This document shows, one piece after another, positions 3,692 through 26,317 of a DNA stretch of 64,000 nt (its first letter is position 1; each line of letters starts with the position of its first letter). The position numbers were made by a program, and so were the translations under genes. The stretch covers positions 96,001 to 160,000 of the forward strand of contig JAVRCJ020000005.1 of NCBI GenBank assembly GCA_034530875.2, written 5' to 3'. The notes under the pieces are model-generated. The model searched no databases. It saw only the letters and a list, made by a program, of their open reading frames with translations, and was not told the DNA's origin. This DNA comes from Nostoc sp. DedSLP01 (GTDB lineage: Bacteria > Cyanobacteriota > Cyanobacteriia > Cyanobacteriales > Nostocaceae).

Positions 3692-4480
3692 TCAAGCAAA
3701 AAACTGGCGGAAATCCTCATCTTTTTGACTCAGTTGCACCCAGTCTAAGTTTAAGGACTGGAATTTTTGCACCAAGCGATCGCAAGCAGGACGTTCTGTA
3801 GCATAATGTCCAGCGTCAATTAAAATGAGATTGCGGTCGCGGCTTTCTTGAAACTGATGAAATTTGCAGTCAGAAGTCAGGTAAGCTTGGGCGCCAGTTT
3901 TAGTTACTGCTGAGATAAAACTCGCTCCCGAACCACCCAAAACTGCAACGCGTGAAATAGTTTGCTGTAGATCTGCTGTTGGGGAAAAAATTAAATTTGG
4001 GGAAGCAAGTCGGGTTTGAATTACCGCAAGTAATTCATGTAGCGTCATCGATGGCTCTAGCAAACCAACACGACCGTATCCTAATCCTGGCTGTGTGGGT
4101 ACTATGGAAGTAACTTGTTTGAGTTGTAAAATTTGAGCCAAGACATCAGCAGTACCATCCTCTACTTGGTCAAAATTGGTGTGAGCGCTGTAGATACCAA
4201 TATTATGGGTAAAGGATAAGCGTATCATTTCTGCGATCGCTTCACCAGTGCGTAAGGACTTGGGAGGGGTAAAAATTAGCGGATGATGGGCAAAAATTAG
4301 ATTAGCATTTAAGGCGATCGCTTCCTGCATTACTGCTAAAGTTGGTGTCAAACACACCAATACTCGCGCTTTTTCCTGCAACACTCCTGGCTCAATTTGC
4401 CAACCACAATTATCCCAGCTTTCAGACCAAGCAGGATTTGCCCATGCTTCAAACCAATTAATTAAATCAGCAATTTTCAT
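3692..4480 (-). CDS. Nif3-like dinuclear metal centre protein (YbgI / GTP cyclohydrolase I type 2 homologue)
   Basis: WDNCG, AHHPLIF, SAHTNFD, GGSG and DAGHYATE motifs. Confidence 0.95.
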   Translation of the reverse strand: MKIADLINWFEAWANPAWSESWDNCGWQIEPGVLQEKARVLVCLTPTLAVMQEAIALNANLIFAHHPLIFTPPKSLRTGEAIAEMIRLSFTHNIGIYSAHTNFDQVEDGTADVLAQILQLKQVTSIVPTQPGLGYGRVGLLEPSMTLHELLAVIQTRLASPNLIFSPTADLQQTISRVAVLGGSGASFISAVTKTGAQAYLTSDCKFHQFQESRDRNLILIDAGHYATERPACDRLVQKFQSLNLDWVQLSQKDEDFRQFFA

Positions 4481-4679
4481 AATTAATTTTTAACTAGAAA
4501 GAATTCAAGAGTCAGAATTCACAAATTGAATTTTTAGCTCTCAGTGAATGAATAAACAGTGAAACACTCGCGCCTAATTTAAAATTTTACGGTCTGCAAT
4601 TATTAGCTAGTCTAAATACTCCACTTCGAGTATTACTGAATTCTAAATTCTCTATTCTCTATTCTTGTCTAATTACTGC

Positions 4680-5459
4680 TCAGTGTTTCTGTGGTTGAAT
4701 ATCTAATTTTAACGCCATTTGCTGACGCATTTCTTGAAAAGGTTTATTCCATACAGGGCTAGCATTCCAATTCCACACTGGTACTGGAATCAGTTGTTCC
4801 CGAGCAAGATAGGTTAACAGACGATATTCATCTTCTGGTTCGCGAGAAAAAGTGAAGGGGTTGCGGTAACCTGTATCGCATAGTTTATAACAAGTTGTTT
4901 GACCCTGACGAATACGTTGTGTAATTTCCTTACCTTTAGCTAGTAAGTAATCAAAAAACATTAAGCTAAAAGGCTCTACACTGCCACGATTTTCTGGGTC
5001 TTTTTGTACCCACCTTGCCCAATCAAATCCATACATAAAATCGTGAACGTAACGGAAACGTATTTCTGTATTAATTCCAAACATCTCCGTTAGCCTAACC
5101 ATCTTTTCACCAAAAATTTTTAGATAAGAAATAGCACCTTCATCTGCGACTAAAGCCTGTCTCAGCATACTACTTACCAAGAAATCAAAATCCCAAAAAA
5201 TATTTTTTGGGAAATTTTCTAACTGAGCATCAACTATAGATTCTAAAGTTTCCTGAAGAGTTGTAATGATTTCGATGTCGGTGTTTTGTTCGGCAATCAA
5301 ATTTCCTAATTGTGTAAAACTGGTAATAATTTTTTGTTGTGGATTCAGTGATAAAAGATTAACAGAGTGCTGGGCAAATATTTCATCAATCAGTTGGAAA
5401 TTATGAGTTGGCATTAATTCTTGCTTCATAGTAATTGAAAAAGCCCAGCCAGATAACAC
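4680..5459 (-). CDS. Conserved hypothetical protein (true start possibly a downstream Met)
   Basis: 259-aa ORF with conserved-looking FPxNIFWDFD and IRFRYVHDFMYGFDWARWV blocks; no function recognised. Confidence 0.75.
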   Translation of the reverse strand: MLSGWAFSITMKQELMPTHNFQLIDEIFAQHSVNLLSLNPQQKIITSFTQLGNLIAEQNTDIEIITTLQETLESIVDAQLENFPKNIFWDFDFLVSSMLRQALVADEGAISYLKIFGEKMVRLTEMFGINTEIRFRYVHDFMYGFDWARWVQKDPENRGSVEPFSLMFFDYLLAKGKEITQRIRQGQTTCYKLCDTGYRNPFTFSREPEDEYRLLTYLAREQLIPVPVWNWNASPVWNKPFQEMRQQMALKLDIQPQKH

Positions 5460-12316: not shown

Positions 12317-13927
12317 TTGATTTTTATGACAGAAAAAAAAATTGAGAATATGGTAGGGCAAAAAGTAGAATTAGACAATTACATTGGACAATTATTAAAT
12401 AATCGCTATTTAATTAGAGATTTAATTGGTAAAGGCGGGATGGGTAGAGTTTACCTAGCAGAAGATACTGCTAAAGGTGGAATGGCGATCGCTATTAAAA
12501 TTCTATCACTCAGTCTAGCCAACCAACACATGTCTCAACGCTTTGCCAGAGAGATTTTTATTGGCGCGCAATTAGGCCGTAAAAGTAAACATATTGTGCG
12601 GATTTTAAGTTACGGCGTAACTGAGGATAAAGTTCCCTTTTATGTAATGGAATATCTGCAAGGCAAAAACCTCAAACAGATTCTCAAAATTCAGCCTTTA
12701 ACAATATCCAGATTTTTAGAGATTTCTCAGCAAATTTGTTTGGGTTTGCAATGTGCCCACGAAGGTATTAACCTCAAAGGAGAAATTTATCCTATTGTTC
12801 ATAGAGATATTAAACCAGAAAATATATTTCTTAGCGAACATCCTAAGCAAGGAGAAATTGTTAAAATACTCGATTTTGGCATTGCCAAGTTTTTAACAGA
12901 GCGCAGTGGGATGACCCTGACAGATTCTTTTATCGGCAGTTTGCCTTATTGTTCTCCAGAACACATGGAAGGGCGAAAATTGTTGGATGTACGCTCTGAT
13001 ATTTACAGCTTGGGAGTATTAATGTTTGAAATGCTGACAGGTAAACATCCATTTCAGACAAAAAGTAACTCCTTTGGTAGTTGGTATCAAGCGCATCGTT
13101 TCCAAATACCACCTACAGTTGAAGAAGTAAATCCGCAAGTTAAAATACCTCAAGCATTACAAAAAATATTAATGAGTTGTTTGGCAAAAGAAGTCAGCGA
13201 TCGCCCTCAAAATATCAATGAAATATTAGACGAATTAGCAAAAATAAATAACCAAATTGAGGATTCTATTTCTGAAGTCTTGCCAACTATGCAATTAGTT
13301 CCGGTAACCTTATTATCAGAAAAAGAGTGTTTGCAGAAAATTTGGCCTAAAAATAAGCCAGTTGCACCAATTGGATTTCCTCATTTATTACATACTCCTC
13401 AAAAATCTATCCCAACTTTTTGGGCAATGTTACCCAAACAGGAAATTCTAAAATTTTTGGATAAACTGCGCGGTACAGAATTTATCGCTAAAATGGATAT
13501 ATACCCAATGTTATTGTGGGTAACAGTACTATACGATGCCGAACCTTCTCTAACAAAATGGCTACCTTATTTTTTGGATTTGAAAGATTCAAAAGGTCAG
13601 AATATAGCGCGTAGCTTAGCAGAAGTAGGTTACTATCATCTACTATTTTTCCCCCTAGAAGATGCCAATCGTTGCTCCCATGTTACGACTTTAAGCATCA
13701 CAGCTAGCCAGCGCCAGCAACTGACAGATTGGTTAAATACGAATCAAAAATTAAATGAATCAATTTTACCTCAAGAAGCCAAAAATCTTTTAAAAATAGA
13801 ATACGAAAAGCTTAAATTAGAGATTTTACGCAAATTAGTTACAGAGCAAAAATCTGAAAAAGAAACTTTAAAAAATAGGCTTGCTAAATTTTGGGAGATG
13901 GTTTTTAAATTTATATCAATTCGTTAA
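12317..13927 (+). CDS. Ser/Thr protein kinase, SpkA-type (paralogue 1; start probably the nearby ATG)
   Basis: GKGGMGRV, AIK, HRDIKPEN, DFG and SDIYSLG motifs; C-terminal WPxNKP...PMLLWVTVLY...WLPxxLDLK domain typical of Synechocystis SpkA. Confidence 0.92.
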   Translation: MIFMTEKKIENMVGQKVELDNYIGQLLNNRYLIRDLIGKGGMGRVYLAEDTAKGGMAIAIKILSLSLANQHMSQRFAREIFIGAQLGRKSKHIVRILSYGVTEDKVPFYVMEYLQGKNLKQILKIQPLTISRFLEISQQICLGLQCAHEGINLKGEIYPIVHRDIKPENIFLSEHPKQGEIVKILDFGIAKFLTERSGMTLTDSFIGSLPYCSPEHMEGRKLLDVRSDIYSLGVLMFEMLTGKHPFQTKSNSFGSWYQAHRFQIPPTVEEVNPQVKIPQALQKILMSCLAKEVSDRPQNINEILDELAKINNQIEDSISEVLPTMQLVPVTLLSEKECLQKIWPKNKPVAPIGFPHLLHTPQKSIPTFWAMLPKQEILKFLDKLRGTEFIAKMDIYPMLLWVTVLYDAEPSLTKWLPYFLDLKDSKGQNIARSLAEVGYYHLLFFPLEDANRCSHVTTLSITASQRQQLTDWLNTNQKLNESILPQEAKNLLKIEYEKLKLEILRKLVTEQKSEKETLKNRLAKFWEMVFKFISIR

Positions 13928-14027
13928 AATTTTACTATTAAAATTAAAAAATTATTAATATTGAATAATATAATTTATATATTACCATCACTAACTGTAA
14001 ATAAATTAAGGAGCAGAGGTTACCAAA

Positions 14028-15554
14028 GTGAATCAAAGCCCATTTGCATCTCCCAGTAATAAGGGCTTGCTTGCCAATCGTTATCAGCTCAAGCAATTAA
14101 TTGGCAGCGGTGGCATGGGGGAAGTTTTTTTAGCAAATGATATTTTGTTAGGGGGAACACCAGTTGCTATAAAGTTTTTGACTCAGACTGTTGCCGACAG
14201 CAAAATGCAACAAGACTTCGCTCGTGAAGCTTTAATGAGTGCAGCTTTGAGCCAAAAAAGCGTACATATAGTGCGCGCGTATGATTATGGCGTTAGTGAA
14301 AAAGGAAAACCATACTACGTTATGGAATACCTATTTGGCAAGAGTTTAAAGGATTTAATTCCGCTATCCCTACCGATGTTTTTGACTTTATCCAGACAAA
14401 TTTGTTTGGGTTTACAGTGCGCTCATGAAGGCATTAATATTGATGGCAAAATTTGTCCGTTAGTTCATAGAGATATAAAACCTGCAAATATATTAGTTAT
14501 CCCCGATCCTATATTAGGTTATTTAGTTAAAATTTTAGACTTTGGTATTGCTCGATTTTTAAATTATGCATCAACAGCCTCTACAAGTAGAGGGTTTAAT
14601 GGGACTTTGCCTTATTGTTCTCCAGAACAACTAGATGGGGAAAAATTAGACGGTCGTTCTGATATTTATAGCCTGGGCGTGATGATGTTTGAGATGCTCA
14701 CAGGCAAAAAACCTTGGCAGCCAGAAACTGACTACTTTGGTGCTTGGTATAAAGCACATCACTTTGAAGCACCAAAAGCGATCGCAGATGTCAAACCCAA
14801 TCTGAAATTGCCTCAAAAACTTAATAATTTAATTATGGCTTGTCTTGCGAAAAAACCAAGCGATCGCCCACAAAATATTGCTCAAATTTTACAAGTTTTA
14901 AATAGTTTAGAACAATCTAATTGTCCTAGTTTACCTACAACTTTAGCCTCTAGAACTATCCTCACTCGCCCTTTAGATTCTGGCTTAACAATTACATTAG
15001 AACAAACCTGTCGGCAACTTTCTTGGCCTGAGAATAAACCAATTCAAGAAATTGTTTTTCCCCACATTATAGACACCTTACAAAAACCCATAACTGCACT
15101 ATGGTTAATGTTGCCTCAACCAGAAATTAAAAAGTATGCTCTTTCTACCCGTTACAATCAATTTATTTTCATCACATCTCCCCACCCAATGCTCCTGTGG
15201 GTAACTTTACTCTACCATCGAGAACTCGCCCCTAAGTGGCTGCCCTGCTACCTAGATATGCAAAATCTCCAAAATCGCAAAATGGTGAGCTTTCTGGCTG
15301 AAAATGAGCGCTATCCGTTGATTTTCTTTACTTTGGAAGCCCCACATTCCTGTGCTAATGTTCTCAGCAGCCGCATTGACCAAAATCAGCGACAAATGTT
15401 AAAAACTTGGGTCGAACAAAGTCAGAACCTACCGCCCAGTTCTCAAGCCCACTTGAGTAAACAGCTTCTAAAACAACAGTATAAACAAATGCAATCCAAG
15501 ATATTGCAGCATTTAGAATCAAAGCCCCAGGTTGTATTATCCGGATCTGCGTAA
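14028..15554 (+). CDS. Ser/Thr protein kinase, SpkA-type (paralogue 2)
   Basis: LLANRYQL, GSGGMGEV, HRDIKPAN, DFG and YCSPEQ motifs; C-terminal RYNQF..PHPMLLWVTLLYHRE..PKWLPCYLD closely resembles SpkA. Confidence 0.93.
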   Translation: MNQSPFASPSNKGLLANRYQLKQLIGSGGMGEVFLANDILLGGTPVAIKFLTQTVADSKMQQDFAREALMSAALSQKSVHIVRAYDYGVSEKGKPYYVMEYLFGKSLKDLIPLSLPMFLTLSRQICLGLQCAHEGINIDGKICPLVHRDIKPANILVIPDPILGYLVKILDFGIARFLNYASTASTSRGFNGTLPYCSPEQLDGEKLDGRSDIYSLGVMMFEMLTGKKPWQPETDYFGAWYKAHHFEAPKAIADVKPNLKLPQKLNNLIMACLAKKPSDRPQNIAQILQVLNSLEQSNCPSLPTTLASRTILTRPLDSGLTITLEQTCRQLSWPENKPIQEIVFPHIIDTLQKPITALWLMLPQPEIKKYALSTRYNQFIFITSPHPMLLWVTLLYHRELAPKWLPCYLDMQNLQNRKMVSFLAENERYPLIFFTLEAPHSCANVLSSRIDQNQRQMLKTWVEQSQNLPPSSQAHLSKQLLKQQYKQMQSKILQHLESKPQVVLSGSA

Positions 15555-15694: not shown

Positions 15695-15768
15695 GGGACT
15701 GTAGTTCAATTGGTTAGAGCACCGCCCTGTCACGGCGGAAGTTGCGGGTTCGAGCCCCGTCAGTCCCG
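15695..15768 (+). tRNA. trnD: tRNA-Asp(GTC), CCA not encoded
   Basis: GGGACTG/CAGTCCC acceptor stem, D-arm TAGTTCAATTGGTTAGAGC, anticodon arm CCGCC-CTGTCAC-GGCGG, T-loop GGTTCGAGCC. Confidence 0.98.
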
Positions 15769-15938: not shown

Positions 15939-17384
15939 GTGACTGTTAGAGTCCGTATTGCGCCCAGTCCGACTGGAAATTTACATATTGGTACAGCGAG
16001 AACGGCTGTATTTAATTGGTTATTTGCCCGCCACCACGGTGGGACGTTCATTTTGAGAATAGAAGACACAGACTTAGAGCGATCGCGTCCTGAATATACT
16101 GAAAATATCCTTCAAGGGCTGCGCTGGTTAGGGTTGAACTGGGATGAAGGGCCGTTTTTTCAATCGCAACGCCTGGATCTTTATAAACAAGCAGTACAAC
16201 AACTACTAGATCTAGGATTAGCTTATCGCTGTTACACCACTGCTGAAGAACTAGAGGCTTTACGAGAAGCCCAAAAAGCTAGAGGCGAAGCTCCTCGCTA
16301 TGACAACCGTCACCGCAACCTCACCCCAGAACAACGCGCTGCTTTTGAAGCAGAAGGTCGTTCTTCTGTAATTCGCTTCAAAATTGAAGACGATCGCGAA
16401 ATTGTCTGGAACGATTTAGTCAGAGGAAAAATGTCCTGGCGAGGTAGCGATTTAGGCGGTGATATGGTTATCGCCCGCGCCTCAGAAGAGGGTAGCGGTC
16501 AACCTTTATACAACTTTGTAGTTGTAGTTGATGACATCGATATGCAAATTACCCATGTCATTCGCGGAGAAGACCACATCGCCAACACAGCCAAGCAAAT
16601 TTTGCTGTATGAAGCTTTGGGAGCAAAAATTCCAGAGTTTGCCCACTCACCGCTGATTTTGAACAAGGAAGGGCGTAAACTTTCCAAGCGGGATGGCGTC
16701 ACTTCTATCTCTGACTTTAAGCAAATGGGCTTTACTGCCGAAGGCTTGGTAAATTACATGACATTACTTGGTTGGTCGCCCCCAGATTCAACCCAAGAAA
16801 TATTTACCTTAGAAACAGCAGCCAAAGAATTCAGCTTTGAGCGAGTTAATAAAGCAGGTGCAAAATTTGACTGGGACAAGCTCGATTGGTTGAACAGTCA
16901 GTATATCCACAATACGCCTGTAGATAAACTCACTGATTTACTCATACCTTATTGGCAAGAAGCTGGGTATAAATTTGACGGGGGACGCAGCCGCCCGTGG
17001 TTAGAGCAGTTAGTAACTTTAATTAGCCAAAGCTTGGCTCGACTGGTAGACGCTGTAGCTATGAGTCAAGTGTTTTTCACCGACACAGTTGAATTTAGCG
17101 ACGAAGCAAATACACAACTCAAGCAAGAAGGTTCTGCTGCTGTCCTTGAGGGGATTGTCACTGCTTTGGAAAATCAGCCGCAACTCTCGGAAGAATCTGC
17201 CCAAGAGATTATTAAACAAGTAGTTAAAGAACAAAAAGTCAAAAAAGGCTTAGTAATGCGATCGCTCAGAGCAGCTTTAACTGGAGACGTTCACGGCCCC
17301 GACCTCATCCAATCTTGGTTATTACTAAATCAAATTGGTTTAGATCGGCTGCGCTTGAGTAGAGCAATTACCCAAGTTAATTAG
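15939..17384 (+). CDS. gltX: Glutamate--tRNA ligase
   Basis: [11 protein letters not shown] (HIGH), [15 protein letters not shown] and KLSKR (KMSKS) motifs. Confidence 0.98.
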
Positions 17385-17445
17385 CGATGACTCCCAGTTT
17401 TTAGAAATATTTTAGTTAGATTTTAAGGGCGTATATTTATGCGCC
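17381..17445 (+). repeat. Left copy of imperfect direct repeat bounding the gltX 3' island (overlaps a hairpin at about 17417-17456)
   Basis: Matches 21540-21593 at 49/54 aligned positions plus one 4-nt indel; begins at the gltX stop codon. Confidence 0.85.
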
Positions 17446-17475
17446 TCTAAAATCTATCTATTGAGCATAGAACCC

Positions 17476-17701
17476 ACATTTCGCAGGTGTGATCGTAAAT
17501 GCTGTATTTTTGAAAGTAACTTCAATGCTGCATTTTAGAAGCATGAGAGTATAACCATTAGATACCAACCATATCCGGCAGGTAAATGAATAGGCTGATG
17601 GTATTTTTAAATCATGATATCTGAGCAACGTTGGATTCTCCAGTTTCTCAGTGAGCCTTGCCGAAAATATTATTTGCTTACCAAAGAGACCTGCAAAATG
17701 T
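17476..17701. mobile_element. Possible MITE / IS remnant (~226 bp)
   Basis: Terminal inverted repeats ACATTTCGCAGGT (17476-88) / ACCTGCAAAATGT (17689-701), 12/13 match; no clear TSD. Confidence 0.45.
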
Positions 17702-17913
17702 ATATTGCATAATTAAAAATTGTAACACGTAAGTAGTGATTAGTAGTTGCTAATATTACTATTGTCTGGTTAGCTCAATTTTTATACGGCTTTAGTCCGA
17801 TACTGCATTGTTTAACATAATTAAATAATACTTACGCATTCACAAAAAACGTAAAGTAACTAATTCTAATTTTTGAACATAAAATTAAATTGCCACTGAA
17901 CTATACAACAAAT

Positions 17914-18474
17914 ATGAATACAGAAGATTTACTGGTTAACAGTTTTCGGCAGGTATTTGAAAACATGAATAAGGAAGGGATAAAGGATAGCATCGATAAA
18001 AACGGGATTGATAGGTTTATTTCTGATTGTGCATTGTTAGCTGCTACAACAGGTGCAGCTAGTGGTTTTGGGGGATTTTCTACAATGATTGTTGGAGTTC
18101 CTGTAGATGTTATAAATAACGTTATTCAACAGTTTAGAGTCACATTAGGAGTTATTTATCACAAAAAAGGGGTATATAAAGTTTCTTTTTCTCAATTTAT
18201 GAAAATAGTAGGAGTTTCATTAGGTGTAGAGATTGGTGCGTCTCTAACAAAATCAGTAATGATCGCTATTGCTAATAAAATACTTGTTAGATTATCTGCA
18301 TCAAGTGCAGGCAAAGCTGTACCTTTTTTAGGTGCAGTTATTGGCGGCAGTGTAAATTACGGTTTTATTAGAGCTATAGGATCTGCTGTTAAACGAATAG
18401 ATATGAGCAACATTGTCTTTGAAGAAGATGTACAACAAGATGATTCAACTAATGAAACCTCTTTATCTACTTAA
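17914..18474 (+). CDS. EcsC-like protein
   Basis: AATTGAASGFGG..VPVD and GKAVPFLGAVIGGSVN Gly-zipper motifs typical of EcsC-family proteins; ATG at 17914 preferred to TTG at 17890. Confidence 0.7.
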   Translation: MNTEDLLVNSFRQVFENMNKEGIKDSIDKNGIDRFISDCALLAATTGAASGFGGFSTMIVGVPVDVINNVIQQFRVTLGVIYHKKGVYKVSFSQFMKIVGVSLGVEIGASLTKSVMIAIANKILVRLSASSAGKAVPFLGAVIGGSVNYGFIRAIGSAVKRIDMSNIVFEEDVQQDDSTNETSLST

Positions 18475-18728
18475 AAGATACTGTGCATTTTTTTAGCGTG
18501 TGTTAATCAGATTTATATGAAGGCTTCCTACCAAGATCTGTGCCAAAAAAACTGTTATCAAAAATTGTAACCTACATTGCCCAGATTGAAACGGAGAGTT
18601 CGGTATTTTTTAATAACGTTGAATTAGCAATTAATATTTAAATTTTTGGCTTCACTAAGCTACATAAATATGGTGTTTTCTCATGCATCATTCTTGGATT
18701 GCTATAGATGTTTTCTTGATCTCGGATT

Positions 18729-18983
18729 CTAAACATCAAACCCATATTTTTCTTTTAATAAAGCCTTAAGTTTATCATTAGGTTTTTCTCCATAACAAGA
18801 ACCAACAACCTTTCCATAATCCTCTAAATCAATAGTTTGATTTGATTCGAGTGCTTTTAAAAACTCCTGCTCTAAAGCAGGTCTTATATAAACGAAATAA
18901 TATGCCCATCGACCAGTGCTATCTTTAGCTTTGAGTTTATGAATAAGATGGCCTCGTTCTGCAAAAAACTTATCTTCATGCAT
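18729..18983 (-). CDS. Small hypothetical protein (84 aa), last gene of the island operon
   Basis: ORF with globular-looking sequence KAKDSTGRWAYYFV...IDLEDYGKVVGSCYGE.P. Confidence 0.8.
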   Translation of the reverse strand: MHEDKFFAERGHLIHKLKAKDSTGRWAYYFVYIRPALEQEFLKALESNQTIDLEDYGKVVGSCYGEKPNDKLKALLKEKYGFDV

Positions 18984-19028
18984 ATCGCTATCACTACTAG
19001 ATGAGTTTGGACTAATTTAGTATGAACT

Positions 19029-20794
19029 TTAAGAATCCCATTGAGTTGATTTACGTAAGGCATTAATCACAGCATTACGAACCTCCTTTTCCCTATGATT
19101 CTTCATAGACTCTAAAACCTTCCGCCCCTGTGGATTACTAACACCGGCTAATGCATAAGCTAGGGCATTGATATCTATTTGATTCTTTATACCAAGTTCA
19201 ATTTGTTGCTGAAGTGCGTCTACATTACCCATACCGATTAGTGCTAGAAAGCAACGTTCAGGTAAACCATACTTATCTGTATCATCTTTTGGGCGATTCA
19301 CTCCATATATAAGCGCAGATATAACTTGAGAATTACCTGTAAACACTAAATAAACTAATGCTTCATCACGTTCATCACTAGTACACATATCATCCTGAAA
19401 AACTTGGAGGAGCGGGTCTATTATTTCGGGTAGAAAGCATCCTAGTCGTCCAAGCGCAATGGCTACATATCTTTTGGCTTTAATTGGTAAATGTGAAAAG
19501 ATTAACTTTTTCATGACCTCAATATCTTTCAGACGATTGAGATATGATACTTTTGGTAACTTTCTTTGAGGCTTACCTCCATCTGCCACAATTGCCCATT
19601 CGTAAATCCAATCTGCTTGGGCAAATATAGTTTTTTCAGGGGTACAGACGCTCAAAATAAGAGCAGACCAACTTCGAGCAAAAGCATCATGTTTTTCATT
19701 GATAATAACTTGCCGTAAAATGTCAAGTTCTTCATCAGCAAAAGTATAGGTTGTGTAAGAATGGCAAGTTTTGGCACTGGTTAGCCATAAAATAGCCCAT
19801 ATAGCTGTGGTTGACACTGCATCATTACCCACCGTCTTTTGTTCAGCAGCCGTAAGTAATACTTTGACCGCTTTACGCAAGAGTCCGTTCGGTAAAAATC
19901 TATTCTTGTACTATTATTTTTACCCTGTGGACTATAGAATGCTTCAACTAAGTGCAGTGCTGCTTTAACACGCTCTTCCACCGAGCAGAAGATAGTTAAC
20001 TCCTCCAAAAAGGGTATTAATATTTGAGTAGCATTTTCTGCATTGAGGATTTCACTGATTGTGATTACCGTATTGAATAAAACACCACCAATCTTATTTC
20101 GATGGTCATCACGAGTTTGTATATAACTCTTTAACAGTCGTTCATGCAATAGCTGTCTAAAACTGGACTGCATTACTGAATAAAATGCTTCGTCCATTAA
20201 AGTATTCTGCTTATTGTTAAGACCATCAAGGTCGTTGAGGTTATCTATAGCTTTATCTATTACTAAATGAACGGTCTCGTTCTTCAATCCAGGCTCTTTT
20301 CCAAGGCACTGCATAGCAAAACTAGACAAAGCACGAGCTTCCGTAGCCGATCTATTGGAAGATAACAGCATTAACATCACGTCATCAGCCGTGACAATAC
20401 TTAAAGACTCTGATTTATTGTTTTTTTGACCCAATTTAAATATCCAAAAGCGCATAAACTCTTGCCAATGAGCAGCGACAACTGGCTCAGTTTTTTGACT
20501 TTTACCAAAAACTTCAATTTGTCTATCTACAATCGGTATGTCATGCATTTTCTGACATAAAGAATCCAAGATATCTAAAGTTTTTTGTTGGCTCTCTTTT
20601 TTTAAAGATTCTATTTCTTTAGCTTTTCTTTCAATTTCTTGCCGACATTCTTCAATTCTTTTTCGTAATCCAAATCTTTGCTCTGCACTGTAAGTCAAAA
20701 CAAGGTCTTTCTCTAGTTCGGCAAGTTTTTCTTGCCAGAGATCCATCACTTCCTCTTGCTTTAATAAAATTTGTTCTCGATTATCTGCTGACAT
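19029..20794 (-). pseudogene. HEAT-repeat protein with N-terminal helical hairpin, split by a 1-nt deletion (restored length ~588 aa)
   Basis: ORFs 19781-20794 and 19029-19880 overlap; adding one T to the T5 run (plus-strand A5 at 19894-19898) gives ...RIDFLPNGLLRKAVKVLL...; C-terminal half has HEAT-like repeats (AKRYVAIALGRLG, ERDEALVYL, EVRNAVINALRK). Confidence 0.75.
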
Positions 20795-20797
20795 TCC

Positions 20798-21277
20798 CTA
20801 TCTCCGAACTATTCTCCTAATTTTCTCCCAAGCTTTATACATCAATCCCTCTGTTTCCATCTCCAACTCATAAGATACGATCGCAGGAATTAACGGTAAA
20901 ACTACCTTCAACTTGGCTGAGGCTGCTTTATCTTGTTTCTCTAACTTGTCTCTAATCTCTTGCAGGAGAGAAATTAATTCTGAAGGATAAGTAATGGGAG
21001 GTCTCTGTTCGATAGATACAACTGCTTGTTCTACTTTAACCAGTTGGGTTTCTGCTTCCTCTTCAGAGATAATAATCGCTTCTTGTGGATAAAGTTGCCA
21101 GTATTCTGTCTCGTATTTAGTAATATTAGGGAGAATCTCTCGCTTAATGCGCTGCTTTAACTCAAATTTCGCAGGTTGACTATTACTAGTAAATAACTCT
21201 TTTTCAAACTCTCCCAGCTTTTCGTAGAGTAAGTCTAAAATATCTTTTAAGTCATTTAGTCTGTCGTAATCGCTCAT
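20798..21277 (-). CDS. Hypothetical helical protein (159 aa) whose N-terminal hairpin is homologous to that of the downstream gene
   Basis: ORF ends 3 nt before the next ATG; DLLYEKLGEFEKELFTSNSQPAKFELKQRI motif; C-terminal KLKVVLPLIPAIVSYELE. Confidence 0.85.
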   Translation of the reverse strand: MSDYDRLNDLKDILDLLYEKLGEFEKELFTSNSQPAKFELKQRIKREILPNITKYETEYWQLYPQEAIIISEEEAETQLVKVEQAVVSIEQRPPITYPSELISLLQEIRDKLEKQDKAASAKLKVVLPLIPAIVSYELEMETEGLMYKAWEKIRRIVRR

Positions 21278-21539
21278 ATTTATTTTTAATTTATAGTTGT
21301 TAATGTAATAAAGTTTTGGGCGTTCTTGAATGATGCGGTAAATAAAAAATTATCCTATCATGAATTATTCAAGATTGCTATATATTTTACTTATCTGTTG
21401 ACGGTCTTCACTCTTGATTAGGGGAATAAAAAAGTCTAAATACCCACTGTTTGAGGACATGCCCCAGCCTCGCATTTTACATTGAGTATCATATTCAGGC
21501 GCTCAAATGGCTCCATGAAAGTTTCTTAACAGCAGCCAG

Positions 21540-21600
21540 TTAGTGATTACTTCCAGATTTTAGAAATATTTTAGATTTTAGGGGCGTATATTTGTGGGTC
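21540..21600 (+). repeat. Right copy of imperfect direct repeat bounding the gltX 3' island
   Basis: TTAGTGATTACTTCCAGATTTTAGAAATATTTTAGATTTTAGGGGCGTATATTT, compared with 17381-17438. Confidence 0.85.
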
Positions 21601-21766
21601 CCTATCGACAAGGTACAGCAACTACAGGAACAAGAAATTATTGAGTGATTACTAATGAATTATCCCCAATTTCAAATCCAAAATACCTAGTCAATTATCC
21701 TCATGTTGGGAACTTGGGGTGTAAAATTCATGTCTTCAAAAGCACTTAGAAGCAAACCTAATTACA

Positions 21767-22261
21767 ATGCCGACAAAAGCGCTCAACATAGGGATGAGAT
21801 TATCGTTGATGATAGTTACGCTTTTCATCACTTCAGCAATTAATGCCATAGCTGATGCCCAAGAAGCGCCAACGATATTTGGAGATGTCACCATTAGCCC
21901 GCAGTTTTCGCCAGATCCATTGACAGTTCGGGGGATGAGTGGTGGCTCAGTTTCTGGAAATCAAGTAGGTGGCAGAAATGAAACAGCCACCGGCCCTTGT
22001 ACTGGATTCGTTGATGAAACGCCAGACCACACATTAGTACTAACCAGTAAATTTGATTACCTCAAGCTACAAGTTCAAAGCCCTGAGGACACTACCATAA
22101 TTGTTAACGGCCCCGGCGGTACTTGGTGCAATGACGATTTTGATGGTAAGAATGCTGGCATTGTTGGTGAATGGCTGGCTGGAACTTATCAAATTTGGGT
22201 TGGTTCCTACGATAAAGGCAAGTATCTTCCTTACACTCTACAAATTACAGAAGTTAAGTAA
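21767..22261 (+). CDS. Secreted conserved protein, pre-peptidase C-terminal (PPC)-like beta domain
   Basis: Signal peptide; CTGFVD..PDH, DTT...GPGGTWCNDD and GTYQIWVGS motifs. Confidence 0.8.
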   Translation: MPTKALNIGMRLSLMIVTLFITSAINAIADAQEAPTIFGDVTISPQFSPDPLTVRGMSGGSVSGNQVGGRNETATGPCTGFVDETPDHTLVLTSKFDYLKLQVQSPEDTTIIVNGPGGTWCNDDFDGKNAGIVGEWLAGTYQIWVGSYDKGKYLPYTLQITEVK

Positions 22262-22269
22262 AGAATAGG

Positions 22270-22384
22270 GCATAGGGCATTGGGCGTGGGGAAAAGGGTA
22301 AGGGGTAAGGGGGAAAAGTTAAATTTATCCCTTTACCCTTTACCCTTTAACCTTTTCCCCTACCTCCCATACCTCCCTATGCCG
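22270..22384. repeat. G-rich/C-rich STRR-derived long hairpin
   Basis: GGCATAGGG...AAGGGGTAAGGGG arm followed by CCCTTTA repeats...CCCTATGCC arm. Confidence 0.6.
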
Positions 22385-22613
22385 ATTCTCTTTCTTTTTC
22401 TCGTGCGATATTGTATTAAAATTAAGTTAACTTTAATTAAGATTCTTGTTGGCATGGCCATAATGGTCTAAAGCTTGTATGGCTTTGCATATAAGAAATC
22501 AAATTAAACAAAATGGATTTATGAACATCCGTTTAACGGCTCAAAGTGACAGAATGATAGTCCTTCGGTTGCTAAGGCTAATGAGTTGTATAAACATCTA
22601 GAGGCAAATTAAC

Positions 22614-24500
22614 ATGAAATTTTCCTGGAAAGTCGTGGCACTCTGGACGTTGCCGGCTTTGGTTATTGGCTTTTTCTTCTGGCAAGGAGCTTTTGCAGGT
22701 GCGCCTGCGGATATGACTAAAAATGCCGCCAACACCCGGATGACCTATGGTCGCTTCCTAGAATATTTGGATGCCGATCGCGTCACCAGTGTCGATCTGT
22801 ACGAAGGCGGCAGAACTGCAATCTTAGAAGCTCGCGATCCAGATCTGGAAAATCACATCCAAAGGTGGCGGGTCGATCTGCCTGTTAACGCCCCTGAGTT
22901 AATTAGCAAGCTTAAAGAAAAGGGAATTAGTTTTGACGCTCACCCCATGCGTAATGATGGCGCAATTTGGGGATTATTGGGCAATCTGGTGTTTCCAGTT
23001 TTATTGATTACTGGATTATTCTTTTTGTTCCGGCGTTCTAGCAATCTTCCTGGCGGGCCAGGTCAAGCAATGAACTTCGGCAAATCCCGCGCCCGCTTCC
23101 AAATGGAGGCAAAAACCGGAGTCAAATTTGATGATGTAGCTGGGATTGAAGAAGCTAAGGAAGAATTACAAGAAGTTGTTACCTTCCTCAAACAACCAGA
23201 AAGATTCACCGCTGTGGGCGCACGCATTCCCAAAGGAGTACTCTTAGTCGGGCCTCCTGGAACTGGTAAAACTTTATTAGCAAAAGCGATCGCTGGTGAA
23301 GCAGGCGTACCTTTCTTCAGCATTTCCGGTTCGGAATTTGTAGAAATGTTCGTAGGTGTAGGTGCATCCCGCGTCCGCGATTTGTTTAAGAAAGCTAAAG
23401 ATAACGCCCCCTGTATTATCTTCATCGATGAAATCGATGCCGTGGGCAGACAACGGGGCGCTGGTATCGGTGGCGGTAACGATGAAAGAGAGCAAACTCT
23501 CAACCAATTGCTGACCGAAATGGATGGGTTTGAAGGTAACACAGGAATTATTATTATTGCTGCTACCAACCGTCCCGACGTATTAGACTCAGCATTGTTG
23601 CGTCCCGGCCGTTTTGACCGCCAAGTTACAGTAGATGCACCTGACATCAAAGGGCGTTTGGAAATTTTAGAAGTCCACGCACGGAACAAGAAACTAGACC
23701 CTAGCGTATCCTTAGAAGCGATCGCTCGCCGCACTCCTGGATTCACTGGTGCCGATCTAGCCAACTTACTTAACGAAGCGGCAATTCTCACCGCCAGAAG
23801 ACGCAAAGAAGCTATCACCCTCCGCGAAATTGATGATGCAGTGGATCGGGTAGTCGCTGGGATGGAAGGTACTCCTTTGGTAGACAGCAAGAGCAAGCGC
23901 TTAATTGCCTACCACGAAATTGGACACGCCTTAGTCGGGACTTTGTTAAAAGACCACGATCCAGTACAGAAAGTCACCTTGATTCCACGCGGACAAGCAC
24001 AAGGTTTAACCTGGTTTACTCCCAACGAAGAACAAGGTTTAATTTCTCGTTCCCAGTTGAAAGCCAGAATCACTGGTGCTTTGGGCGGTCGCGCTGCTGA
24101 AGAAGTGATTTTTGGCGCTGCGGAAGTAACCACTGGCGCTGGTGGAGATTTGCAACAGTTATCAGGAATGGCGCGGCAAATGGTAACCCGGTTTGGGATG
24201 TCAGATTTAGGGCCATTGTCGCTGGAAAGTCAACAGGGAGAAGTATTCTTGGGTCGTGACTGGACAACCCGATCTGAGTATTCTGAATCTATCGCTTCTC
24301 GGATTGATGGACAAGTTAGAGCGATCGTTGAAGATTGCTATGAAACCGCTAAGAAAATCATCCGCGACCATCGCACCGTTACCGATCGCTTGGTAGATTT
24401 GCTCATCGAAAAAGAAACCATTGATGGCGAAGAATTCCGTCAGATTGTGGCTGAGTATGCTGAAGTACCAGAAAAACAACAGTACGTACCACAACTGTAA
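22614..24500 (+). CDS. ftsH2: ATP-dependent zinc metalloprotease FtsH2
   Basis: MKFSW N-terminus, [11 protein letters not shown], Walker [17 protein letters not shown] zinc motif and QAQGLTWF. Confidence 0.96.
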
Positions 24501-24595: not shown

Positions 24596-25666
24596 TTAAA
24601 AGGAATCCTCATCCTCTAGATCCTCTAATTGATCGTAATATTCATTATATCCTTCCTCTAATTCAGGATAATGCATTGCTCGGTGTAAAGGTGTAATAAA
24701 TTTATCGCTTACTAATTCAAAAATATTCAATGTAGCATCTATCACTTCTAGAGCTTGCTCTGAAGAAATTTCTATCACATCATATCTAGGATTATTGGTA
24801 GGCTTTTTAATAAAGATTTCTTCTGAGTATGGAATTTTTTTTACTTCATCTACTATTTTTAAAGTGCTTTCAAGATAGCATTCTAATTTCTGGAGGATAT
24901 AGAATAGTTGATGTCCATATTCATTTCTCAACTCTTTCCGTATTTCTTCAGATGTATTTTTAGTGTATTTTAATTCTTCTTCTATTAAACAAGCTTTTAA
25001 AAGTTTTTCAATTGCTTGTGAAGCCGGAAAAATTACAAATTGATAATCCCTCGTATTTTTTAAAGTAACGATAGCAAGATTTAAATCTTCAATAGCAAAA
25101 CTAATAAGCTTTATAGTTTCATTATTCAAATAAAAATTATTTTTTAATTGTTCAGGGACTATAAAAGGAAAATTACGATCGGTTTTACGTTCTTCATTAC
25201 GATAAAAAACTACATCATTTAGATATTTTATTGCTTGGAGTTTTTGTCTACTGCATTTAAACAAATTTTTTAAATATTCATTTTCTTCTTCTGTTAAACT
25301 TTGTTTGACTATTTCCGGTAAATTTGTGCAGTTAATATTGCAATCTTCAATCTTTTCTGGATGTGTGAAATACCAAATTTGTCCTTGCAGAAACAATGGT
25401 GTTTCTTTAATAATGAAATAATCAGGTATTTGTTTATATCCATAATTTTCTCGATACCAATCCTCAACTTGCCAAGCAGATAAGAATCTATCTAATTCTT
25501 CTTCACTTAATGAATCAACTCCATTGAAAAATCTATCTCCTAAATCATTTATATCAGGGCATAATTCAAGTACTACTATATCAATTCTGTCAGCAAGATA
25601 TTTATTTTCACTTGCTAATCTGCGATTTATTTTAGCTATTTGAGCATTTGTTTCATCTATGTTCAT
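24596..25666 (-). CDS. HEPN-domain protein with uncharacterised N-terminal region (AT-rich, accessory)
   Basis: C-terminal AIEDL..A, F.ASQAIEKLLKA, GHQL and PRY motifs of HEPN (MNT-associated type). Confidence 0.75.
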   Translation of the reverse strand: MNIDETNAQIAKINRRLASENKYLADRIDIVVLELCPDINDLGDRFFNGVDSLSEEELDRFLSAWQVEDWYRENYGYKQIPDYFIIKETPLFLQGQIWYFTHPEKIEDCNINCTNLPEIVKQSLTEEENEYLKNLFKCSRQKLQAIKYLNDVVFYRNEERKTDRNFPFIVPEQLKNNFYLNNETIKLISFAIEDLNLAIVTLKNTRDYQFVIFPASQAIEKLLKACLIEEELKYTKNTSEEIRKELRNEYGHQLFYILQKLECYLESTLKIVDEVKKIPYSEEIFIKKPTNNPRYDVIEISSEQALEVIDATLNIFELVSDKFITPLHRAMHYPELEEGYNEYYDQLEDLEDEDSF

Positions 25667-25798: not shown

Positions 25799-26317
25799 TT
25801 ATATGTTACAGTCTACAAGTTTAGAAGTGAGCCGACAGAAGCCCAATACGACCATCATCACCCAGAAACTACCCCCCAACCAAACATTTCCCCTATTAAT
25901 ATCACAACTAATATAAGGAAGGTGTCCTTGTGGTGCTGTAAGGTCGAAAGTCAACTTTGGATAATGTAATCAGTTCCAATCCTCTTTCCTCCAACCTACA
26001 GCATTGGCAAAAGTTCCCCAAATTTCTACATCATATTCCTTCACAATTTCTGCTTTATACTCCTTAGTTCCACCAAGGCTTTGATAAATACGCCTTTGAA
26101 TTGAGAAGCCAAAGTGTCCATTGCTGTATTTAACCCACAATCGGTCAATAATGCTGAGGTCTGTACAGGGAAAATCATCAATATCTTGAAAACGCAACCA
26201 ACTTTCCTGTTTCGCTACTACTAACATTACTCGTCCTGTTTCGTGATCAGCCTCTTTCCATTTCCCAGCAGCGAGTAAGTCCTGCAAGCGGGTGTAGTCT
26301 GTTGATCCTTGTGGCAT
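25799..26317 (-). pseudogene. Stand-alone GUN4-domain gene interrupted by one TGA (25970-25972)
   Basis: DYTRLQDLLAAGKWKEADHET, FPCTDL.IIDRLW..YSNGHFGFSIQ; the frame stays open past the stop as LHYPKLTFDLTAPQGHLP...SKLVDCNI*. Confidence 0.88.

Follow-up and report, generated by a model that had tools for sequence, protein, structure and literature searches.

Gene A of a small cluster in Nostoc sp. DedSLP01 encodes a mobile 155-amino-acid (aa) module that is joined, across its relatives, to STAND, VMAP, or TPR partners in three ways. The cluster—genes A, B, and C, in that order on one strand—lies in a 64,000-nucleotide (nt) stretch of contig JAVRCJ020000005.1 (hereafter the window, meaning that whole stretch). 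Its genes are tightly spaced, with gaps of 3 nt (A/B) and 45 nt (B/C), as a preliminary description made from the sequence alone had reported. We regard the cluster, on comparative sequence evidence, as an undescribed variant of conflict systems that are related to NLR proteins and coupled through effector-associated domains (EADs), broken in this strain. The specific hairpin shared by A and B, the co-occurrence of the genes, and their conflict-domain partners bear out the immune-type interpretation first offered for it, although no EAD cut-off is passed. Two results go beyond that interpretation: the NACHT origin of B and the finding that the majority of the A family is of the frameshift-coupled type. 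Our broadest reading is tentative, and we hold it at a little less than even confidence: one module would be coupled to immune-type sensors interchangeably, by fusion, by −1 frameshift, or by a duplicated hairpin on a separate gene; the junction in the window would reuse a Shine–Dalgarno (SD)-like element; B would be an NTPase-free NLR derivative; and the 84-aa product of C may be a new sensor or decoy domain.

Are the N-termini of A and B truly related? The two 30-residue segments originally quoted share 14 identical residues, and the proposed homology holds in broader comparisons. Alignment of the two hairpin families with hhalign scored 96.3% (E 1.5e-9, 42 columns). Among 45,940 open reading frames (ORFs) of the genome, the best non-self match of the A-hairpin profile is B (E 4.6e-4; next, 0.061) and that of the B-hairpin profile is A (E 1.6e-6; next, 0.069); neither profile found any other hairpin protein in these ORFs. 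The genes also travel together, as anticipated: a hairpin-bearing gene starts 3 nt after A in 13 of 13 loci, and the HEAT region and the 84-aa domain occur together in 11 of 22 loci of the separate-gene type. Generic coiled-coil bias between unrelated passenger genes would account for the 130 families of weak coiled-coil Pfam matches that the hairpins gather and for a fold search that returns generic hairpins only, yet it is hardly credible in the face of the reciprocal best matches, the profile E value, and the fixed gene order.

What is the module itself? The fold model of A (pLDDT 83.8) has a hairpin (helices at residues 3–30 and 34–62) followed by four helices, the last of them basic and amphipathic, and a KLK..P motif is conserved; the model derives from a shallow alignment of 39 close sequences, leaving the C-terminal helices uncertain. 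A has 294 close homologues, and its relatives form 286 clusters at 50% identity. In the 115 clusters scanned, from 150 listed out of the 286, the module is found fused to TIR, SEFIR, Roc-COR, nSTAND1, NACHT, TPR, vWA, and TRADD-N domains and also to EAD1, EAD8, EAD11, FGS, and GUN4. Neither A nor C reached the cut-off of any family in Pfam, NCBIfam, PADLOC, or PHROGs; matches to DASH_Ask1 and DUF848 were dismissed as coiled-coil noise, and the ESM Atlas matches of A were unnamed cyanobacterial clusters only. A fold search with A gave no match at E 0.001, the best hits (Z 9.5) being generic hairpins over residues 1–70, with the C-terminal half barely tested.

How is the module joined to its partners? 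From 95 loci, including the window, we obtained 94 nonredundant copies and classed 87, after excluding 2 that lay at the edge of a contig and 5 that carried a fused C-terminal extension. The next gene is separate in 23 of the 87, and all 23 such genes carry the hairpin (12–45 bits against a profile built from module N-termini only) and their own start. Twenty of these 23 junctions read stop, 3 nt, ATG or GTG, and pairing with the anti-SD sequence peaks at −6.2 kcal/mol, 5 nt before the start, a pattern that makes translational coupling of A and B probable. Because the 20 junctions are in frame, the 3-nt gap could instead have been kept for stop-codon readthrough joining A to B; the single-ORF protein P0127 resembles such a junction fixed as one frame, and locus L048 has an in-frame TGA with no near start. 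We rate readthrough as a long shot, however, since the stops (TAG 11, TAA 10, TGA 2) and the bases after them vary, each B comes with a start codon and a suitably positioned SD-like element of its own, L049 contains a pair of in-frame stops, and L197 and L200 are out of frame.

In 48 of the 87 copies, by contrast, the module ends in an in-phase slippery heptamer (42 A_AAA_AAG, 3 A_AAA_AAA, 2 G_GGA_AAG, and 1 G_GGA_AAA) with the −1 frame open for at least 100 codons; the background for this combination is 19 of 5,487 ORFs of this genome. None of these 48 partners carries the hairpin (scores of 2.5 bits or less). The stem right after the heptamer averages −10.8 vs. −5.8 kcal/mol, and 33 of the 48 stems lie at or below −10 kcal/mol vs. 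11% of 384 control windows; this positional test is stronger than the dinucleotide-shuffle z-scores, which are modest (mean −1.5; 19/48 below −1.5). The SD-like signal 5′ of the heptamers is weak, averaging about −2.7 kcal/mol, an ATG or GTG lies within 60 nt in only three copies, and nSTAND1 begins at its model position 1, six to eight residues past the shift. The partners comprise 23 STAND proteins, 10 dominated by TPR_12 (a label taken from the best five domain matches per partner), 6 VMAP-C, 5 TPR, 1 Ig/PPC, and 3 without a family, and the joined forms have single-ORF equivalents (P0148 and P0127). With heptamer, 3′ stem, 5′ SD-like element, and no internal start, these copies display the hallmarks of programmed −1 frameshifting as known from dnaX and IS3-family elements (available text of PMC3711429 and PMC5009743), and the sequence evidence is strong enough that we consider such frameshifting probable in these relatives, where the long product would be a shifted module–sensor fusion. 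The window junction differs, in that it has no slippery heptamer with an open −1 frame; among the 23 separate-gene copies, one has a heptamer, and its frame closes after 34 codons. A further 17 loci from the genus added 14 copies. Of these, 11 were of the −1 type and lacked the hairpin, 2 were separate and had it (both repeating loci already counted), and 1 was fused.

Some copies follow other patterns. In L062, L065, and L318–L326, an nSTAND4-type partner is joined through a run of 9–10 A without a stem; for this subgroup, to which 8 of the 11 −1-type copies of the genus follow-up belong, polymerase slippage may be at work instead. L047, L048, L056, and L057 have hairpin-less partners without a working −1 site, using the +1 frame or an in-frame TGA, and are candidates for broken fusions or another form of recoding. 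At L231 (positions 3698–5056), a very distant module shows the same succession of stop, 3 nt, start, and hairpin in an ABC-three-component locus with PADLOC PDC-M68A/B and LmuB-like matches. Two tandem modules occupy one VMAP–MoxR–vWA locus, L200, one standing before a hairpin–FGS gene and the other slippery-linked to VMAP-C.

The partition of the hairpin between the classes, 23 of 23 against 0 of 48, fits a hairpin that replaces a covalent link, within the limits that kinship sets on such a test. The classes cluster on the tree, so the contrast rests on few independent events; a Fisher test would overstate it and was not used. In a quick, midpoint-rooted tree, separate-gene copies fall mostly in one clade (34 rows, SH-aLRT 99) nested among frameshift copies, a topology suggesting that split genes may have arisen from frameshift-linked ones. 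In the sister frameshift clade, purine-rich codons lie as far from a conserved YE motif as the last two Arg codons of A do in the window; they are identical in L193 and L194 and vary among the other copies. We infer one element with two uses, as a frameshift stimulator in one clade and as the partner's putative ribosome-binding site in the other.

Where does B come from? It had been described as a hairpin ORF running into HEAT repeats; the HEAT region is real (HEAT_2, E 7.1e-9), but B is not one ORF, being split into 337 and 292 aa in two frames, and the HEAT matches are confined to the second part. The break lies at 19894..19898 (minus strand), where a T-run has five bases against six in 4/4 aligned orthologues, and the intact orthologue of L013 (587 aa) shares 80% and 87% identity with the two parts. 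An assembly error is not favored as the cause, since the short run is present in deep contigs of three sequencing runs (depth 187–474; all belong to a single study, and this DNA may have come from them); the contig of a relative (X4) has the additional base in this run. Residues 76–587 of the L013 orthologue align to everything that follows the NACHT module in CHAT-, trypsin-, TIR-, and caspase-like NACHT proteins, NACHT is carried by 15 of 16 long homologues of B, and identity to the C-termini of NACHT proteins is 57–62%. No NTPase family was found on A, B, or the intact orthologues, and B aligns only downstream of the NACHT module. Intact B is thus the entire post-NACHT region of an NLR-like protein whose effector and NTPase have been replaced by the hairpin. 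The same region also stands behind a hairpin–phosphoesterase (P0298) and behind P0325 (L122, a MoxR-type locus), which, from sequence motifs, we take to be of vWA type. That B would sense is suggested by the position of this region in NLR-like proteins (available text of bioRxiv 10.1101/2022.07.19.500537). With B broken, the strain could make no more than a hairpin-bearing half.

Gene C was initially seen as a small partner. It indeed has no known fold or family, but it makes more sense as a sensor end that has become detached than as a third partner. Its model (helix-strand-strand-helix-strand-helix, pLDDT 89.5) found no structural match in the Protein Data Bank or viral libraries (best Z 3.4), a missing match being no proof of a new fold; sequence searches yielded no solved relative and no usable ESM Atlas match. 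C forms the C-terminal domain in 119 of the 120 longer homologues listed, with TIR, caspase, NACHT, SIR2, and DUF4062 partners, and it is fused to B in L003–L006 and L014 while separate in L002, L008, L010, L013, and the window. Because B matches a post-NACHT region, C occurs as a C-terminal domain, and B–C fusions exist, the two make up one sensor-position unit minus effector and NTPase. The C domain also occurs alone (∼90 aa) in many Rickettsiales and other Alphaproteobacteria (L105–L146), 59–74% identical (60–74% for standalone Rickettsiales proteins) and with no common neighbors; it was absent from 50,697 phage records and matched two plasmids. At L132 (4767–5243) and in P0320 (for which the name is that given by the source), the domain forms the rear part of a fusion with a HigA-type antitoxin. 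In L008, L091, L092, and L100, five small uncharacterized genes and an AAA ATPase, with IetA-like PADLOC matches in the three loci tested, are conserved after the A–B–C block.

The cluster is an accessory insert, and a convergent EcsC-like gene belongs to it (Table 1). An imperfect 58-nt direct repeat (84% identity over 58 nt) flanks the insert. As first noted, it is free of HIP1 sites: of all the intervals between the 54 sites in the 64 kb of the window, that at 17258–23286 is the longest, and the chance of zero sites in a given 4.2 kb is about 0.03, uncorrected for scanning. Its description as AT-rich stands in part, with a GC content of 35.3% vs. 40.8%; the stretches at 11–14 kb and 25–26 kb are equally low or lower, so GC alone does not mark the cluster. 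We compared 80 loci fetched between gltX and a conserved 164-aa gene, of which 79 were usable (one lacked gltX). The site is empty (<800 nt) in 72 of the 79, and the cluster recurs there only in L270 (same contig as L013). A defense hotspot is accordingly rejected, and the expectation of a defense-rich neighborhood was not borne out: no other defense genes stood at the site in these loci, which takes occasional inserts. At the same site, L282 (= L096) has an insert remnant, part of gene C next to a transposase-like ORF. The module is present in 18/127 genomes of the genus, 35/401 of a phylum sample, and, with a broader profile, 61/301 of an order sample; these counts are samples of related, nonindependent genomes.

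Table 1. Coordinates of the cluster and its flanking repeats in the window
Feature	Position	Strand	Description
Gene A	20798-21277	−	159-aa all-helical module
Hairpin of A, EAD9-like	21092..21271	−	About residues 3–62
A/B junction	20792..20806	−	Last two Arg codons purine-rich (SD-like), stop, 3 nt, B start
Gene B, broken	19029..20794	−	Hairpin and post-NACHT helical/HEAT region; about 588 aa if intact
Hairpin of B, EAD9-like	20585..20773	−	About residues 8–70
Gene C	18729-18983	−	84-aa alpha+beta domain
EcsC-like ORF (PF12787; PADLOC candidate PDC-S29)	17890-18474	+	Convergent; first ATG at 17914
Direct repeat, left copy	17381..17438	+	At gltX stop codon; left end of insert
Direct repeat, right copy	21540..21593	+	Right end of insert

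The suggested link of the EcsC-like gene to the cluster is confirmed, and it is an optional member: EcsC lies near 5 of 11 HEAT-type loci, against 0 of 11 other separate-gene loci and 0 of 48 frameshift loci, and L089 (4998–5843) holds a natural fusion of the 84-aa domain with EcsC, 81% identical to C and 85% to the EcsC-like protein of the window. The latter matches its PADLOC candidate at E 2.3e-14. In the accessible literature, the partners of jukA in its operon include an EcsC-like gene (bioRxiv 10.1101/2022.09.17.508391), and EcsC is mentioned once in a CASP locus.

Do the hairpins qualify as EADs? Kaur et al. (2020, 2021; available text of PMC7159879 and PMC8195603) recognize EADs by their occurrence in pairs, a small helical build, and a likeness that is lineage-specific, and propose that they couple homotypically. 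The N-termini of A and B had been put forward as such domains. They are small, nonenzymatic, and modeled as a two-helix hairpin, and a second copy lies on an adjacent gene with variable effector or signaling domains (PMC7159879). As for a copy on the core component, the relatives' module is linked, through either a frameshift or a fusion, to VMAP-C or STAND, while B in the window is a NACHT-derived tail without the core NTPase. As for the likeness of adjacent copies, partner hairpins score their own class above the frameshift class in 19/22, though none of the 22 ranks its own neighbor's module first, and partner-vs.-partner ranks in six loci were 1, 2, 4, 6, 6, and 11 of 27. EAD9 (PF19962) is the nearest family in relatives, but its Pfam cut-off of 25 bits is passed nowhere: a search of A and B gave no match, the eight weak places in the genome do not include this locus, the top-ranking EAD9 matches of relatives' partner hairpins (12/30; best E 5.1e-4) all fall short, and the distant module P0231 reaches 20.8 bits. 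A single Ile is invariant among those 30 partner hairpins. The system would work much as an EAD pair does; we do not assign it to EAD9. Just past the window end (G000:C5:161229-161330), the highest EAD9 score in the genome (18.5 bits, short of the cut-off) comes from a 1015-aa frame.

How might the parts work together? We put at roughly one in two the chance that the cluster is an accessory EAD-coupled sensor–effector module, inactive or crippled in this strain, in which A is recruited by hairpin pairing. Intact B, with C fused or separate, would be the sensor end of an NLR-like NACHT protein minus NTPase and enzyme effector. On sensing an invader, B hairpins would cluster and recruit A—the coupled translation product of the same message—through like-with-like pairing, and A may then serve in defense as a nonenzymatic effector or amplifier, oligomerizing through its conserved C-terminal half. 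The B hairpin would substitute for the covalent link made elsewhere by fusion or programmed −1 frameshift; in relatives, the frameshift would yield free A plus an A–sensor fusion. A complex model hints at homotypic binding of A and B: it scored 0.43 (best control 0.00), with contacts agreeing at 88% or more and partner pLDDT of at least 83. The mark applied is reached by 116/157 solved complexes and 2/215 mismatches, and passes at or below 0.60 include 18 of the 157 solved complexes and both passing mismatches.

That A is the effector is suggested by the alternation of PNP with A, by minimal loci that hold A and B–C only, and by the lack of any other hairpin protein in the genome. Hairpin–PNP phosphorylase genes precede hairpin–HEAT–84-aa genes, with no A directly upstream in L094 and L095, and since they sit before the same sensor type, A and an enzyme can fill one slot. 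Several observations weigh on the other side. A has no catalytic motif, no fold match, and no transmembrane stretch (maximum hydropathy 1.38), and the frequent fusion of the module to TIR, SEFIR, and other EADs fits an adaptor as well as an effector. A partner hairpin ranks its own neighbor's module first in 0 of 22 cases. In neither junction class are 16 of the 87 copies, mostly broken or partnerless, and L047 and L048, within the window's clade, have hairpin-less NB-ARC-type partners. The separate-gene label needs six changes on the tree, three of them forced by strong branches; this class was defined by hairpin score, with start codons checked afterward; and one family supplies 15 of the 48 frameshift copies. 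Finally, no PADLOC system model matches A, B, or C (best matches in PADLOC 2.0: E 0.005, E 0.016, and none, respectively).

Hairpin coupling could also operate with A as an adaptor or as a decoy inhibitor whose free form caps the hairpin and sets a threshold, in which case EcsC, a PNP enzyme, or the product of some other locus would be the effector. A role as adaptor or brake is suggested by the fusions of A to TIR and SEFIR enzymes and to EAD1, EAD8, EAD11, and TRADD-N; the frameshift would yield free A in fixed excess, EcsC is linked to the cluster, once fused to C, and the preprint cited above places an EcsC-like gene beside jukA. We nonetheless find this version unlikely, with perhaps a one-in-four claim: EcsC is missing from the examined flanks of 6 of the 11 HEAT-type loci, L004 and L005 share only A and B–C, no other hairpin protein is encoded in the genome, and PNP can occupy the slot of A. 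More improbable still is a modular signaling device for development, stress, or envelope sensing. In its favor, some partners are periplasmic-binding, GUN4, PPC, or TPR proteins, no tested defense system matches, and the site lacks other defense genes in the 79 loci. Against it stand the patchy presence (18/127 and 35/401 genomes), the repeat-flanked insert, the rapid partner exchange, the frequent decay, and the STAND, VMAP–MoxR–vWA, TIR, PNP, and bDLD3 partners, which are conflict components in the available text of PMC7159879 and PMC8195603.

The sensor–effector reading places the cluster near several known systems. Like the EAD9/VMAP–MoxR–vWA ternary systems of multicellular cyanobacteria (same texts), it has a small N-terminal helical domain on adjacent genes and variable partners (PNP, bDLD3, FGS, WD40, and GUN4), and in the relatives L051 and L200, MoxR-type AAA genes follow and a hairpin–WD40 or hairpin–FGS gene precedes. 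It differs in that the window has no MoxR, vWA, or NTPase and stays below the EAD9 cut-off, and its hairpin forms only one part of an unnamed module of 155 aa; frameshift coupling is not described in the available text. NACHT/STAND NLR-like antiphage proteins (available text of bioRxiv 10.1101/2022.07.19.500537 and PMC13581612) have a C-terminal sensor-position repeat region to which B plus C corresponds, and STAND NTPases bearing TPR, WD40, or HEAT repeats make up the majority of the frameshift partners of A. The window copy, however, lacks the central STAND NTPase switch and an enzyme effector, and the matched NACHT proteins are not shown to be defensive. Bell/BASS pairs (available text of bioRxiv 10.1101/2020.01.06.895854) likewise have a small helical gene upstream of a receptor, a shared motif, and both split and all-in-one forms, but there the motif is described as a short amyloid sequence at the effector C-terminus, whereas here a 60-aa hairpin stands at both N-termini. 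The literature covered, which left out most subscription papers, describes neither the module nor the 84-aa domain nor this recoding; the searched supplements of PMC7159879 contain no EAD9 entry, and its source-data tables may list these proteins.

Homotypic coupling of EADs is a prediction in the available text of PMC7159879, and the family offers a natural test of it: a second copy of the hairpin is missing where module and sensor are covalently joined and present where they are not. A recoding link may thus be exchangeable for a protein interaction, and recoding could determine how much of the module is free and how much is receptor-bound in a bacterial NLR-like system. Two domains, the 155-aa module and the 84-aa domain, are unannotated, and many cyanobacterial STAND genes are, by implication, annotated without their N-terminus.

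Promoter and terminator scans gave chance-level signals only. Elsewhere in the window, its lowest-GC stretch contains a gene at 24596-25666 (minus strand) whose 356-aa product ends in a HEPN domain (E 7.7e-8) and has no PADLOC match; a 115-aa GUN4-like ORF, possibly truncated, lies at 25970-26317 (minus strand). Two tandem Ser/Thr kinase-like genes with a common C-terminal region lie at 12317-15554, and a tRNA-Asp gene (15695-15768) stands between them and gltX.

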